Source: Escherichia coli
Lineage (GTDB): Bacteria; Pseudomonadota; Gammaproteobacteria; Enterobacterales; Enterobacteriaceae
Length of the DNA stretch: 64,000 nucleotides
Reading direction: 5' to 3' (one strand)
Assembly: GCF_044647545.1 (NCBI RefSeq)
Contig: NZ_CP172818.1
The position numbers were made by a program, and so were the translations under genes. Position 1 is the first letter of the stretch, and every line of letters begins with the position of its first letter. The notes below the pieces were generated by a model that did no database searches, was not told where the DNA came from, and was given only the letters and a program-made list of their open reading frames with translations. Positions 1-54,901 of the stretch are shown piece by piece.

Positions 1-243
1 GATAATCACCGGTCCGAGTACGTGGGCCAGAACAGGTGCCAGCGCGGTCATACCAACCATCGCCAGGCCCAGTGCGCCCATCGCCATAAAGCCTTCTTCA
101 AACTGCCCGCCGGATCCTTCGATACTTTTACCGAACTTACCGAGGAAACGAGCAGAACCGCCGAACTGCGACAGGATCCTGTCTACGGCAGCTATCAGCA
201 TAAAGAACATCATGATGTACATGATGATTTCGTTAATTCCCAT
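1..243 (-). CDS. eutH: ethanolamine permease EutH, 5' part only (gene runs off the left edge)
   Basis: Reverse strand from 243 reads ATG GGA ATT AAC... = MGINEIIMYIMMFFMLIAAVD..., a hydrophobic N-terminus; lies directly downstream of eutG in eut operon order. Confidence 0.8.
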   Translation of the reverse strand, partial: MGINEIIMYIMMFFMLIAAVDRILSQFGGSARFLGKFGKSIEGSGGQFEEGFMAMGALGLAMVGMTALAPVLAHVLGPVII

Positions 244-313
244 CGCCTTTACTCCCTGTTAGTTGTTATTTATCCGGCCAACACACCCACGCGGCAAGCG
301 TCGCATCCGGCAT

Positions 314-1501
314 TTATTGCGCCGCTGCGTACAGGCCGACAATCTGCTCCAGGCTGGCGGTACGCGGGTTGCTGCGCAGACAAATATCTTCCAGCGCGGC
401 CTGCGCCCATGCGCCGTAATGCGCAGATGTCGCACCAACATCGCCCAGTCGTTTACCAATCCCAACTTCAGCAATCAGCTCACTTACCGCGTTAATAGCG
501 TCACGATCGTCGGATTTTTTAGTTCGCAGCGCCCGACCAATCTGACTAAACCGATCACGACAAACCATCCGGTTAAATTCCATCACCGTTGGCAACAACA
601 TGGCGTTCGCCAGACCGTGCGGAATATGCAGCGCCGCCCCTGGCTGATGCGCCATCGCGTGGCATAACCCAAGCCCGGCGCTGGAAAACGCCATTCCCGC
701 CATACATGAAGCCAGCAACATGCTCTCGCGCGCGGCAAGGTCATGGCCGTAGCCCACCGCTTTCGGCAGTGATTTGCCAATCATCGCAATGGCACCAATC
801 GCCAGGCTGTCGGTAAACGGTGTAGCGTTCAGCGCGCTGTACGCTTCAATGGCATGGGTTAACGCATCAATGCCAGTCATCGCCGTGACATGCGACGGCA
901 CGCCTTCGGTCAACGCGGCGTCGAGAATCGCCACATCCGGCATCAGCGAGGCATGGGCTAACACCTGCTTGCGCCCGCTCACCGCGTCGATAATCACCGT
1001 TACGTTGGTGGTTTCAGAGCCGGTTCCGGCGGTCGTTGGAATGGCAATCAACGGCAGGCGCGGTTGCAGAACGCTGGTTTCTGACATTTCTGCCAGCGTG
1101 CTATCGGGGTTCGTCACCAGCAACGCCACGGCTTTCGCCGCATCCAGCACCGAGCCGCCGCCAAACGCGATCACCCCGTCACAACCTGATTCACGCAACT
1201 GCGCCACGGCTGCACACACGTCGGTGATGCATGGTTCGCCCACCGGACATGGCCAGAGCGTCATGGCGATACCTTTAACGGCCAGGCTACGCGTCAGCCC
1301 GGCGGTCATCCCTGCCTGATGCAAAAAGCTGTCTGCCATCACGAACAGATGTTTCAACCCACGCGTTTGCGCTTGCTGCCCACAACTGCTCACCGCGCCC
1401 GGACCGCAAAGCGTCACCGGTGGAACGCTAAATGTTTTTACCCGTTGCAGATTCAGGGTATCGAACGCCTGAAAGAGCGCGGTCTGCAATTCATTTTGCA
1501 T
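314..1501 (-). CDS. eutG: iron-containing alcohol dehydrogenase EutG
   Basis: 395-aa ORF, Fe-ADH family features (GGGSVLDAAK), position in eut operon. Confidence 0.93.
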   Translation of the reverse strand: MQNELQTALFQAFDTLNLQRVKTFSVPPVTLCGPGAVSSCGQQAQTRGLKHLFVMADSFLHQAGMTAGLTRSLAVKGIAMTLWPCPVGEPCITDVCAAVAQLRESGCDGVIAFGGGSVLDAAKAVALLVTNPDSTLAEMSETSVLQPRLPLIAIPTTAGTGSETTNVTVIIDAVSGRKQVLAHASLMPDVAILDAALTEGVPSHVTAMTGIDALTHAIEAYSALNATPFTDSLAIGAIAMIGKSLPKAVGYGHDLAARESMLLASCMAGMAFSSAGLGLCHAMAHQPGAALHIPHGLANAMLLPTVMEFNRMVCRDRFSQIGRALRTKKSDDRDAINAVSELIAEVGIGKRLGDVGATSAHYGAWAQAALEDICLRSNPRTASLEQIVGLYAAAQ

Positions 1502-2327
1502 ATAGCCCCTCCGCTTTCTCTCGCCCGCTACTGGCGATCGCCAGCGGGGTCATAAACAAACTGTGCTGCGGTAAATGCACCTGTAACGCCGGGAATTGTT
1601 TGCGAAACAGTTCCGCCACGCCCGGTTGCATACAAGAGCCGCCCGCCAGCCATAAATCAGTAATGCCCTGCCCTTCAATATGCCGGGCGACAATGTCCGC
1701 CATTTTTTCGTACACTGGTTTCACCGCGGGCCAAATCTCTTCACCGTGACCGCGCTTGTACTGCTCTGCCTCTTCCAGCGAAATACGACGATTTCCGGCG
1801 AGAGTCAGAGAGATGTGATGTCCGCCGGTCGCTTCATCCGCCGAGTACGTCACCTTGCCCTTTTTCACGATGGCAATACCAGTAGTGCCACCGCCGATAT
1901 CCACTACACCAGCGTTGTCCAGTTGCAGCAGATCCGCGACTGCGGTTGGCTCATCCAGTACATGGCTCACTTCCAGTCCGGCAGATTCCAGCACGTTGAT
2001 GGAAATACGCGGGTCCGTACCAGGAGGAAATGAGGTCGCCGCATGGCTAAAACGGCGACCGAATTGCTGCTCAAGGGTGTCGAGATGGCGACGAACAATG
2101 GTGACCGCACCGAAGAAATCCCAGACGATGCCGTCGCGGACCACATCGGCCCAGTCGAGGCATACCGCCACCGGCAGACCGTCGCGGTCGACAACCATCG
2201 ACACCACATCGCAAGTGCCCAGATCCACCCCCAGCCACAGCGGAGATTCCGTCGCGGCGGGCGTCTGGTTACACAGCGTTGCCGCCGTTTGCAGACGTGG
2301 GGTGAGCCATTGTTCATCGTGCGCCAT
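1491..2327 (-). CDS. eutJ: ethanolamine utilization chaperone-like protein EutJ (actin/Hsp70 fold)
   Basis: 278-aa ORF, DLGTxxxxxxV and DIGGGTT motifs, overlaps eutG start by 11 nt. Confidence 0.92.
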   Translation of the reverse strand: MAHDEQWLTPRLQTAATLCNQTPAATESPLWLGVDLGTCDVVSMVVDRDGLPVAVCLDWADVVRDGIVWDFFGAVTIVRRHLDTLEQQFGRRFSHAATSFPPGTDPRISINVLESAGLEVSHVLDEPTAVADLLQLDNAGVVDIGGGTTGIAIVKKGKVTYSADEATGGHHISLTLAGNRRISLEEAEQYKRGHGEEIWPAVKPVYEKMADIVARHIEGQGITDLWLAGGSCMQPGVAELFRKQFPALQVHLPQHSLFMTPLAIASSGREKAEGLYAK

Positions 2328-2337
2328 CGGTTACTCC

Positions 2338-3741
2338 TTAAACAATGCGAAACGCATCGACTAATACACAGCGACGCAGACGGACAAACGTCCGCGCGCT
2401 GGTTACCCCTTCACCGGTTGGCGTGGTGATGGTCATCGTGGTCCAGCCTTCCCCGCCCAGCCCCAGCCCGGCAATGCACGGTCCGTTCTTAACGAAAATG
2501 CTGGTATCAATGGCATTCGCCATCTGGTTCATGTTCTCGATATTGCGCGAGTGCATTGCCGCCGTGTGGTGGCAACCGCCTTCCAGTTTCACCGCCAGCG
2601 CAATGGCATCCGCCACGTTGGCGACGCGCACGACGGGCAGCACCGGCATCATCAGTTCAGTCACAGCAAACGGATGTTCTGCGGTGGTTTCTACAAACAG
2701 CAGTCGCGTTTGTTCCGGAACTTTAAGGCCGATTGCCGCCGCGATTTTCGCCGCATCGCGACCAACCCAGTCACGGCTGACGATGCTTTTTCCGCGCTCG
2801 TCGATATTTTTCAGCAACACCGGTTGCAGCTGCTGCGCCTGCTCTGCGGTCAGTTTCACCGCGTGCTGGCCTTCCATCAGACGCATCAGTTCATCGGCTA
2901 CGCTATCCACAACAATCAGTACCTTTTCGTCGGCACAAATGATGTTGTTATCGAAAGACGCGCCTTTGACGATGGACTGAGCAGCACGGGCGAGGTCGGC
3001 GGTTTCATCCACCACTACCGGCGGGTTGCCAGCGCCTGCGGCAATCAGACGTTTATTGGTGTGTTTACGCGCCGCTTCTACTACCGCTTCGCCGCCGGTC
3101 ACCACCAGCAGGCCGATGCCCGGAAACTTGAACAAACGTTGAGCGGTTTCAATATCCGGATTTGCCACAGTAACCAGTAAGTTTTCCGGCCCGCCTGCGG
3201 CAACAATCGCCTGGTTGAGCAGCGTGATCGCCCGCTGGGAGACTTTTTTCGCCGCCGGATGCGGGGCAAAAATGACGCTGTTGCCCGCGGCAATCAGGCT
3301 GATGGCGTTATTAATGACGGTTGCCGCCGGGTTGGTGGACGGAGTTACCGAAGCCACCACGCCCCAGGGCGCGTTTTCAATTAAAGTCAGGCCGTTGTCG
3401 CCAGTCAGCACTTGCGGAGAGAGGCACTCAACGCCTGGTGTGCCGCGCGCCTGAGCGACGTTTTTGGCAAATTTATCTTCAACGCGCCCCATGCCGGTTT
3501 CACTGACGGCAAGTTCCGCTAAATCTCTGGCGTGTTTTTCGCCTGCTTCACGAATGGCAGCAATGGCTAACTGGCGCATTGCCACGCTTTTTAACCCTTG
3601 CTGGGCGACTTTGGCTGCCGCAACGGCGTCATCCAGGGACGCGAAAACGCCCATCTCATGAACGGCGGCGGGCGGCGTGTCACTGCTTTGCATTTTCAGC
3701 AGTACCGCTTTCACCACCTGTTCAATATCCTGTTGATTCAT
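2338..3741 (-). CDS. eutE: CoA-acylating acetaldehyde dehydrogenase EutE
   Basis: 467-aa ORF, aldehyde dehydrogenase family, operon position. Confidence 0.93.
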   Translation of the reverse strand: MNQQDIEQVVKAVLLKMQSSDTPPAAVHEMGVFASLDDAVAAAKVAQQGLKSVAMRQLAIAAIREAGEKHARDLAELAVSETGMGRVEDKFAKNVAQARGTPGVECLSPQVLTGDNGLTLIENAPWGVVASVTPSTNPAATVINNAISLIAAGNSVIFAPHPAAKKVSQRAITLLNQAIVAAGGPENLLVTVANPDIETAQRLFKFPGIGLLVVTGGEAVVEAARKHTNKRLIAAGAGNPPVVVDETADLARAAQSIVKGASFDNNIICADEKVLIVVDSVADELMRLMEGQHAVKLTAEQAQQLQPVLLKNIDERGKSIVSRDWVGRDAAKIAAAIGLKVPEQTRLLFVETTAEHPFAVTELMMPVLPVVRVANVADAIALAVKLEGGCHHTAAMHSRNIENMNQMANAIDTSIFVKNGPCIAGLGLGGEGWTTMTITTPTGEGVTSARTFVRLRRCVLVDAFRIV

Positions 3742-7795: not shown

Positions 7796-7958
7796 GAGTC
7801 GCCGCCTGTGAAAAACTTTCGTGTATCGTGACAATTTTTCGTCAGAGTAAATAACAAAATTCGGCAAGCGCGTTTAAAAGGTGAGGTAGATCACTAAGAA
7901 TGGAGAGATATTTTATGTTAAGAAAAAAAACATACATTGTATGAATATAAACGGGAAC

Positions 7959-8699
7959 CAATAAGTTTTGTTTATCATATTATATAGACTTCTTTAATTT
8001 TTAATAATTAGCAGAATACATATTTAATTACTGTTGTATTCTAAAAATATTTATCTTCACCCCATTTAAAATAATCTAGGATTTTATTCAGAAAATAAAA
8101 AAGACCCGAAAAAATCCTTCCCCCCCAAAGGCGCTAATTCATCCATATTAACTCAAGACTTCATAGAAAATTTTCTTAACCCCCATATAGAGCCTCTCTA
8201 AGCCTATTATCCTTTTATTATCAAATCTCTAACCCATCTTTACCTATCTGCAAAAACACACACAAACCACTATTTTATTTTTTTTAAAAACGGAAAAAAG
8301 CATAAGGAAACGAAACAAATGAGAAAAATTTCAAAAAAAAAGAAAAATAGAAAAAAAATAATAAAAAAAACGAAAGCGAATACGAAAGGAAGAAAAAAAA
8401 AAACAAAAAATTTCAAATTCCCCAACCCACAGCCACAAAGCAAAACGAACAAACCTGAGGAACTTAAAGAAAAAGAGTATATGAAACTTAAACTAACACC
8501 TAGCTAACTATAGTAACCGAAGAAAGAACACAAAAAAGAAACAAAAATACAAAAAAAAACTAAACAAAAAAAAAAGAAAATCATAAAATTTTTATCTCAA
8601 CATAAAAAAAAAATTGAACAAAAAAAAAATGACCCCAAAAAAAACACCCCAAAAAACAACAAAAGGAACACAACAAAACAAACAAAAAACACCCCAACA
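7959..8699. other. anomalous non-coding low-complexity block: left part AT-rich, right part (about 8281-8699) strongly A-rich/C-containing on + strand; putative foreign or artefactual insertion
   Basis: Hand tally of 8521-8700: A about 68%, C 19%, T 8%, G 4%; A-runs of 9-11 nt; only poly-Lys/poly-Phe pseudo-ORFs; eutS-maeB spacer is 978 bp here. Boundaries approximate. Confidence 0.6.
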
Positions 8700-8728
8700 C
8701 CACAGGAAGGGAGAGGAATCAGCTAAAC

Positions 8729-8756
8729 CGCTTACCCTGAATATTCAGGGTAAGCG
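8729..8756 (-). terminator. perfect 13-bp inverted repeat just downstream of maeB stop (candidate maeB terminator hairpin; weak U-tract)
   Basis: cgcttaccctgaa / ttcagggtaagcg, 17 nt from the maeB stop codon. Confidence 0.4.
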
Positions 8757-8773
8757 TGAGAGTTAAAAAAGAA

Positions 8774-51539: not shown

Positions 51540-52829
51540 TTATTTGTCTGTTATATCCGCGTCTTCTGCGTCCAGCACCACTTCTTCAGGGCGCAGCATA
51601 CTAATCAGTTTGAAGATCAAACTTAAGCCGATACCGACGATGGTCGCCAGCGCCATACCTTTCAGCTCCGCCGCGCCAATGTTTACCTTCGCGCCACTGA
51701 CGCCGATGATCAAAATAACGGAAGTCAGGATCAGGTTCTGTGCTTTGTTGTAATCCACTTTCGATTCGATCAACACACGAATACCGGAAGCACCGATGAC
51801 ACCGTAAAGCAGCAGCGAAACGCCGCCCATCACCGGCAATGGAATCATCTGGATAGCAGCAGCCAGTTTACCGACGCAGGAAAGCAGGATAGCGAAAATC
51901 GCCGCCCCGCCGATAACCCAGGTACTGTAAACACGGGTGATCGCCATCACGCCAATGTTTTCTCCGTAAGTGGTGTTTGGCGTGGAGCCAAAGAAGCCGG
52001 AGATCACGGTCGACAAGCCGTTAGCAAACATCGAACGGTGCAGACCTGGATCGCGCAGCAGATCTTTTTTGACGATATTAGCCGTTACCACCAGGTGCCC
52101 TACGTGTTCGGCAATAACCACTAACGCCGCTGGCAGAATAGTCAGAATGGCAAACCACTCGAAGCGCGGCGTATAGAGGGTCGGCAGCGCAAACCAGTGA
52201 GCATTAATAATCGGCGTGGTATCGACAATTCCCATTGCGAAAGAGAGCGCGTAGCCCACCAGCACGCCAATTAAAATCGGGATAATTGCCAGGAAACCAC
52301 GAAACAGCACGGAACCTAAAACCGTGACTGCCAAGGTGGTAATGGAGATGATGATGGTTTTGGAGTCTGGCGTTTGCCCTTCAGCCGGGAGTAAACCTGC
52401 CATACCGGCAGCTACGCCCGCCAGCTCCAGACCGATGACGGCAACGATTGCGCCCATTGCCGCAGGTGGAAACAGCACGTCCAGCCAGCCGGTCCCCGCT
52501 TTCTTCACGATAAAAGAAACCAGGCAGAACAGCACGCCGCACATAATAAAGCCGCCCAGCGCGACTTCATACCCTAACGGCAACAGTAACAATACCGGTG
52601 AAATAAAGGCAAAGCTGGAACCAAGATAAGCCGGGATTTTCCCTTTACAGATGAAGAGATACAGCAGCGTTCCTATACCGTTAAATAACAGTACAGTCGC
52701 CGGGTTAATATGAAATAAGACGGGCACCAGGACGGTTGCACCAAACATGGCGAACAAATGTTGCAAACTAAGCGGGATTGTCTGTAAAAGTGGCGGTCTT
52801 TCACTCACCCCGATAGCACGGCGCGTCAT
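51540..52829 (-). CDS. uraA: uracil:H+ symporter UraA
   Basis: ATG at 52829 gives 429 aa [16 protein letters not shown]...; NCS2 family. Confidence 0.92.
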
Positions 52830-52869: not shown

Positions 52870-52897
52870 AAAAAAAAGCCGACTCTTAAAGTCGGCT
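52870..52897 (-). terminator. rho-independent terminator between upp and uraA
   Basis: Minus strand: agccgact ttaag agtcggct followed by T8. Confidence 0.8.
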
Positions 52898-52914
52898 TTA
52901 ATTATTTTTATTCT

Positions 52915-53541
52915 TTATTTCGTACCAAAGATTTTGTCACCGGCATCGCCGAGGCCCGGAATAATGTATCCGTGCTCGTTCAGTCCCTGGTCAATCGATG
53001 CGGTATACAGTTCGACGTCCGGGTGCGCTTTTTCCAGCGCAGCGATACCTTCTGGCGCAGCTACCAGTACCAGAACTTTGATGCTGCTGCAGCCCGCTTT
53101 TTTCAGCAGGTCGATGGTCGCGATAACGGAACCACCGGTTGCCAGCATTGGGTCAACGATCAGCGCCATACGCTCATCGATGTTAGAAACCAGTTTCTGG
53201 AAGTACGGTACCGGCTCCAGCGTTTCTTCATTACGGTACATACCGACGACGCTGATACGCGCGCTCGGAACGTTTTCCAGCACACCGTCCATCATCCCCA
53301 GACCGGCACGTAGAATTGGCACAACGGTAATTTTCTTACCTTTGATCTGATCGATTTCTACCGGGCCGTTCCAGCCTTCGATAGTTACTTTTTCCGTTTC
53401 GAGGTCGGCGGTCGCTTCGTAAGTCAGCAGGCTACCCACTTCGGAAGCGAGTTCGCGAAAGCGCTTGGTGCTGATATCTTGCTCACGCATCAGTCCCAGC
53501 TTGTGTTTGACGAGTGGGTGTTTGACTTCCACGATCTTCAT
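52915..53541 (-). CDS. upp: uracil phosphoribosyltransferase Upp
   Basis: ATG at 53541 gives 208 aa [20 protein letters not shown]... Confidence 0.95.
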
Positions 53542-53566
53542 ACTCTTTCTCCTTTGAGGGGCAGCC

Positions 53567-53612
53567 ACAAAAAAATCGACGGATTATACCTCCTTTCTTC
53601 AAGGCGGCAATA
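53567..53612 (-). promoter_or_regulatory. upp promoter with T-tract initially transcribed region
   Basis: Minus strand: TTGCCG -N16- TATAAT ccgtc GATTTTTTTGTGGCTGCC; perfect -10, T7 run right after the likely start site. Confidence 0.6.
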
Positions 53613-53785
53613 TTATTTTCGTTGACTTTAGTCAAAATGATAACGGTTTGAGATAAAGTTATTTTGTATTCAAATGGTTATGGAAGAAGATTATTCCATC
53701 CGAAAACGATCCTTTGCCCTGGTACAAGTATTCTTTTGCCGCGCGCCTGGGGAAAAGACGTGCAAAAAGGTTGTGTAAAGCAGTC

Positions 53786-53801
53786 TCGCAAACGTTTGCT
53801 T
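53786..53801. promoter_or_regulatory. PurR operator (pur box) upstream of purMN
   Basis: tcgcaaacgtttgctt, core GCAAACGTTTGC perfect; about 65 bp upstream of purM start. Confidence 0.65.
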
Positions 53802-53846
53802 TCCCTGTTAGAATTGCGCCGAATTTTATTTTTCTACCGCAAGTAA

Positions 53847-54901
<1,055 letters not shown>

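Follow-up and report, generated by a model that had tools for sequence, protein, structure and literature searches.

The promoter of the upp-uraA operon of Escherichia coli is a classic and fully described case of "repression without a repressor". In abstracts from the Turnbough group, its two start sites are reportedly named G6 and A7, high UTP being said to favour A7 and low UTP to favour G6, and regulation is said to fall gradually when the tract of T's at the start is shortened from seven to three. In strain K-12, the initially transcribed region of upp-uraA is 5'-GATTTTTTTTG (PMC7039003), and upp is controlled by UTP-dependent non-productive reiterative transcription together with start-site switching (PMC7039003 and PMC12709180, both citing Tu & Turnbough 1997). 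The operon, named as such in PMC7039003 and PMC4448216, is grouped with pyrBI and codBA, at which long reiterative RNAs are made that never go back to productive synthesis (PMC7039003). A UTP-sensitive start-site mechanism at upp is given in the title of Tu & Turnbough 1997 (J Bacteriol 179:6665), and the title of Cheng, Dylla & Turnbough 2001 (J Bacteriol 183:221) states that a long T.A tract is required for regulation. Rediscovery of this promoter adds nothing new; the modest added value of the present analysis is comparative and lies in the TATAAT-N5-GA-T7-9 design across 80 species and in recurrent flips of tract length within E. coli.

Anatomy of the upp promoter in the window

We analysed a window of 64,000 nucleotides of E. 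coli chromosome, by which we mean the whole stretch of DNA. A 501-nt query across the upp region was 100% identical to E. coli FDAARGOS_497 and matched 5,424 of 5,426 complete E. coli genomes, the match falling on upp/purM in every case. In RefSeq, the identical stretch is annotated with arsC, hda, uraA and upp to one side and purM, purN and ppk1 to the other, which bears out the gene identity upp given in a preliminary description of this DNA. The gene order around upp was the same as in K-12 MG1655, with hda-uraA-upp facing purM-purN. The upp ATG lies at 53541 and the purM ATG at 53865, leaving an intergenic region of 323 nt. The features of the locus are listed in Table 1.

Table 1. Coordinates of the upp-uraA promoter elements and of the genes discussed, numbered on the window
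Feature	Position	Strand	Basis or remark
-35 hexamer TTGCCG of the upp-uraA promoter	53605..53610	-	Sequence and consensus scan; same in K-12
-10 hexamer TATAAT, perfect consensus, spacer 16 nt	53583..53588	-	Scan; 80/80 Enterobacterales upp loci
Discriminator CCGTC, between -10 and start sites	53578..53582	-	Sequence; CCGGC, CCCGC or CTCGC in other genera
Alternative start base G ("G6", position 6 past -10)	53577	-	K-12 identity
Alternative start base A ("A7")	53576	-	K-12 identity
T7 tract (T.A homopolymer), initially transcribed region, slippage-prone template	53569..53575	-	T8 in K-12
upp leader, 36 nt counted from G6	53542..53577	-	Sequence
Shine-Dalgarno AAGGAG inside the upp leader	53554..53549	-	Sequence
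upp CDS, uracil phosphoribosyltransferase, 208 aa	52915..53541	-	ORF; WP_001295473.1 in 100% identical region
uraA CDS, uracil permease, second gene of the operon	51540..52829	-	ORF and RefSeq annotation of identical region
maeB	8774..11053	-	

Read from the window sequence on the minus strand, the promoter is TTGCCG-16 nt-TATAAT-CCGTC-GA-T7-GTGG, 36 nt upstream of the upp ATG. The string TTGCCG-N16-TATAAT-CCGTC and the seven T's at the upp start are exactly as the preliminary description had quoted them, but its coordinates, 53567-53612, were about 2 nt off: the promoter spans 53565-53610, the GTGG directly 3' of the tract occupying 53568..53565. The two start bases were assigned by identity with the K-12 promoter and from its published initially transcribed region (PMC7039003). 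In a consensus scan, this was the sole sigma-70-like site in 53300-54000 (10/12 matches, spacer 16) and the only promoter-like site of the upp/purM intergenic region. As in the upp/codBA class, where the start lies 6-8 nt past the -10 on purines directly before a non-template T run, the bases G6 and A7 stand directly before the T run, and the T.A tract is long, its seven T's falling inside the natural range of 7-9 found in 80 species. On both strands of the whole window we counted 14 perfect TATAAT hexamers and 22 runs of at least seven T's, ten of these runs being clustered in one T-rich block at 7.9-8.7 kb. Within the 64-kb window, TATAAT and a long T run at start-site distance occurred together only at the upp promoter, and the probability of such a coincidence by chance was estimated from the window counts at ~0.002-0.007. 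The conservation in 80 upp loci described below is a stronger argument than this estimate for the promoter being real.

From the -35 to the ATG, 72 of 73 positions were shared with K-12 MG1655. The -35, spacer, -10, discriminator, GA start bases, leader and Shine-Dalgarno were the same, and the one difference was a T missing in the window, where the tract is T7 as against T8 in K-12. Outside this segment, the window has T at 53615 where K-12 has G, a SNP 5 nt before the -35, and two more SNPs are found further upstream. Position, divergence from purMN, synteny and near-identity all agree with the K-12 upp promoter. Judged from its sequence, the window feature is therefore an allele of the K-12 upp-uraA promoter, a feature already known. 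Set against the published upp promoter, it matches base for base except for T7 in place of T8; the characterised tract is T8, and the T7 of the window is a natural allele.

The feature is almost certainly the sigma-70 promoter of the upp-uraA pyrimidine salvage operon, at which the UTP pool acts on RNA polymerase without a protein repressor. In the proposed mechanism, polymerase would open the promoter and take as its first base either G 53577 or the adjoining A 53576. With abundant UTP, starts at A would be favoured, UTP being the second nucleotide, and the resulting AUUUU... transcript would slip backward with repeated addition of UMP because nothing but weak rU:dA pairing holds it on the T.A tract; poly-U products would then be released, and no upp-uraA mRNA would be made. 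With scarce UTP, starts at G would be favoured, and these transcripts would largely escape slippage and yield upp-uraA mRNA. For its start sites, its dependence on UTP and its dead-end poly-U products, this scheme relies on the literature on the K-12 promoter; the present analysis established the sequence anatomy, the identity with K-12 bar one T, the deep conservation and the natural tract range of 7-9. The preliminary description had taken the promoter to be pyrimidine-regulated and UTP-sensing, which both the near-identity with K-12 and the literature support. It had offered reiterative transcription or start-site switching as alternatives, whereas in the published mechanism they are both at work, the UTP-sensitive choice between the alternative starts G6 and A7 being coupled to reiterative transcription. 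The sequence, conservation and structure analyses gave no evidence against the start-site UTP-sensing explanation.

Several other sequence elements were observed in the window. On the minus strand, a perfect palindrome, TTGAC-TAAA-GTCAA (53622-53635), precedes the upp -35 by 11 nt and is shared unchanged with K-12. It might bind a protein or supply an alternative -35, and it was not kept outside Escherichia in the upp loci examined. A near-perfect palindrome, AGCAAACGTTTGCGA (53786-53800), located 65-79 nt upstream of the purM ATG, shares the intergenic region with the upp promoter; we take it to resemble the PurR operator consensus, as would presumably be expected if PurR controls purMN. Between upp and uraA, a gap of 85 nt holds a terminator-like hairpin, AAAGCCGACT-TTA-AGTCGGCTTT, followed by T's (8-T run overall; 52875-52899, minus strand). 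This hairpin stands inside the described upp-uraA operon and may act as a partial terminator, setting the ratio of upp to uraA. Far from upp, a T/G-rich low-complexity block of ~700-800 bp (window 7900-8760, read on the minus strand) lies just downstream of the maeB stop and holds ten runs of 8-11 T's. With a 951-nt query covering this block, nearly all of the 5,408 E. coli genomes matched in the two flanks only, joined over ~265 bp, so that most strains seem to lack the block. In FDAARGOS_497, no annotated feature was found under the matching part of the query (699-951, the edge of the block), the rest being hidden by low-complexity filtering.

Conservation of the start-site region in Enterobacterales

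One genome per species was scanned with the Upp protein, which gave 80 loci in Enterobacterales at a Upp identity of 92% or more, in genera running from Escherichia, Citrobacter and Enterobacter to Yersinia, Dickeya, Pantoea, Erwinia, Hafnia and Edwardsiella. TATAAT-N5-(G/T)A-T7-9 preceded upp in all 80 species; in Brenneria and in loci labelled Serratia marcescens and Candidatus Symbiopectobacterium, the motif was simply further upstream. The tract was T8 in 46 species, T7 in 25 and T9 in nine, and no run shorter than seven T's was found among the 80. The start dinucleotide was GA in 79 species. Among the non-coding columns, conservation was highest at the -10 and the GA, whereas drift was evident in the -35 region and the leader. 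The register between the -10 and the tract was fixed in 80/80 species, whereas the distance from the tract to the ATG varied from 25 to 81 nt and reached ~170 nt in Brenneria.

The one species with TA in place of GA was Escherichia albertii. In strain NBRC 107761, the sequence reads CCGTCTA-T8, ~37 nt upstream of upp, so that the G start, which is productive in E. coli, is missing.

Tract length within E. coli

Tract lengths in 5,426 complete E. coli genomes were counted as exact matches of 71-74-nt queries differing only in tract length. T8 was found in 4,738 genomes, T7 in 438, T9 in 19 and T6 in four, and the remaining ~225 genomes carried other differences in the segment. Taken with the lack of any tract below seven in the 80 species, the rarity of T6 (4/5,426) fits selection for a long tract. 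All four T6 genomes came from pigs or their manure. Seven of the 19 genomes with T9 were O157 (six typed as O157:H7), whereas T8 is the length in most O157:H7 genomes. The rare lengths are thus not randomly spread, which suggests small clades fixed for the extremes T6 and T9.

Local haplotypes of 7 kb were then compared in 20 genomes, one of which carried T9. The window haplotype was the same as that of strain ST648 and differed by at least 69 substitutions from all others compared. Over the 7 kb, K-12 MG1655, with T8, was free of substitutions against Sanji, WCHEC005237 and 26561, all with T7, and so were S88 and ATCC 11775 (T7) against 729_xx_1_3_yolk (T8). Further T7 backgrounds were 2013C-3492 with 90-3040, and C8, so that T7 was present on at least five local haplotypes. 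Fitch parsimony on a neighbour-joining tree of the 20 local haplotypes required at least six length changes. Furthermore, when the SNP at 53615, 40 nt from the tract, was crossed with tract length, all four combinations were present: genomes with T at 53615 comprised 197 with T7 and 2,149 with T8, and those with G comprised 241 and 2,582, respectively. The frequency of T7 was ~8.4% on either allele. The several T7 haplotypes, the T7/T8 pairs without substitution and the equal frequency on the two SNP alleles indicate that tract length changes recurrently. This change, which stays within 7-9, is as expected of replication slippage at a homopolymer, and T7 is a common, recurrent natural allele that is the normal state in many related genera.

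The haplotypes, the tree and the SNP crosses reject T7 as the marker of a single clade. Spread of T7 by recombination is less parsimonious: the T7 genomes of the K-12-type haplotype are free of substitutions over 7 kb, and in the nearest other haplotypes with T7 the tract is flanked by SNPs within 25-56 nt to one side and 206-530 nt to the other. No report of natural variation in upp tract length was found in the literature searched, and a paper on O104:H4 mentioned only a coding SNP in upp.

We expect the T7 allele to work as T8 does, although slightly more of its transcripts may escape at high UTP. A possible but less probable reading is that T7 is a functionally distinct variant, with more escape at high UTP, a raised basal level of upp-uraA and a narrower range of regulation, and with the tract serving as a mutable rheostat. 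Its occurrence in 438 of 5,426 genomes on at least five haplotypes, two of them without a substitution over 7 kb against T8 genomes, is in keeping with such a variant, as are the six or more length changes on the 20-genome tree and the four combinations with the SNP (197, 241, 2149 and 2582 genomes). The gradual loss of regulation that is said to accompany shortening from seven T's to three points the same way. So does the requirement for a long tract named in the title of Cheng et al. 2001. However, T7 is normal in 25 of the 80 related species, which is compatible with a working switch, and its equal frequency on both SNP backgrounds has the look of a mutation-drift balance and not of selection.

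We consider it rather doubtful that tract length is a recurrently mutating and possibly selectable rheostat, toggled by slippage between 7, 8 and 9 on otherwise identical haplotypes. On this reading, T7 would have become the norm in several successful lineages, namely the ST648-type genome of the window and the S88/IHE3034/UM146 and Sanji/WCHEC005237 groups. If one T altered upp-uraA expression under pyrimidine excess, uracil salvage would vary between strains as a heritable trait and, because Upp activates 5-fluorouracil, so would fluoropyrimidine sensitivity and bioconversion. This could bear on how strains of gut E. coli differ in activating 5-fluorouracil; PMC5406385 discusses drug conversion that depends on Upp. 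The natural allelic series from T6 to T9 is a resource on how tract length relates to the gain of a polymerase-intrinsic nucleotide sensor.

Other readings of the T run and comparison with related promoters

U-rich leaders can enhance translation, and productive starts place the tract at the 5' end of the mRNA. The T run might on this ground be no transcriptional sensor at all and act instead as a translational enhancer bound by ribosomal protein S1, as the tail of a terminator or attenuator, or as bent DNA for the divergent purM promoter. We regard this as very improbable. The tract keeps its distance to the -10 in all 80 species while its distance to the ATG is free (25-81 nt, ~170 nt in Brenneria), a combination expected of a start-site element and one that argues against a role in ribosome binding. 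No hairpin precedes the T run, and a consensus scan found no terminator-like hairpin in 53300-54000. The leader gave no significant RNA structure (MFE -8.3 kcal/mol, z = 0.63), and no Rfam family matched at E <= 1 in 53200-54000; the lack of a structure signal, of an Rfam match and of a terminator-like site led us to reject a leader attenuator or riboswitch. The purM ATG is ~290 nt away from the tract.

In long-read assemblies, no error is commoner than an indel in a homopolymer, and some of the 438 T7 calls, like the single T8 call within the S88-type haplotype, could be errors. That the T7 of the window is such an error, the true tract being T8, is nevertheless exceedingly improbable and was rejected: its haplotype is identical in two independent assemblies (FDAARGOS_497 and strain ST648), T7 recurs in many independent assemblies of the same lineages, including the early finished genomes S88, UM146 and IHE3034, and it is found in 25 other species.

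The upp-uraA promoter, read as a start-site UTP sensor, follows the same logic as that of codBA (ATTTTTTG; Qi & Turnbough 1995), which shares UTP-sensitive switching between adjacent starts and non-productive addition of U's, on a T6 tract (PMC7039003, PMC12709180). Unlike upp, codBA is a separate operon outside the window, with a shorter tract and other start bases and spacing. The promoters of pyrBI (AATTTG; Liu, Heath & Turnbough 1994) and carAB P1 (GTTTGC) share UTP-dependent reiterative transcription at a T run after the start, but they have three T's, and high UTP triggers slippage directly, without start-site switching (PMC12709180). Sensing of a nucleoside triphosphate by slippage at a start-site homopolymer is also shared with Bacillus subtilis pyrG (Meng, Turnbough & Switzer 2004). 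By contrast with upp, pyrG is sensitive to CTP and G's are added, and the slippage is productive, the extra G's forming an antiterminator (PMC7039003, PMC12709180), whereas the slipped transcripts of upp are dead ends.
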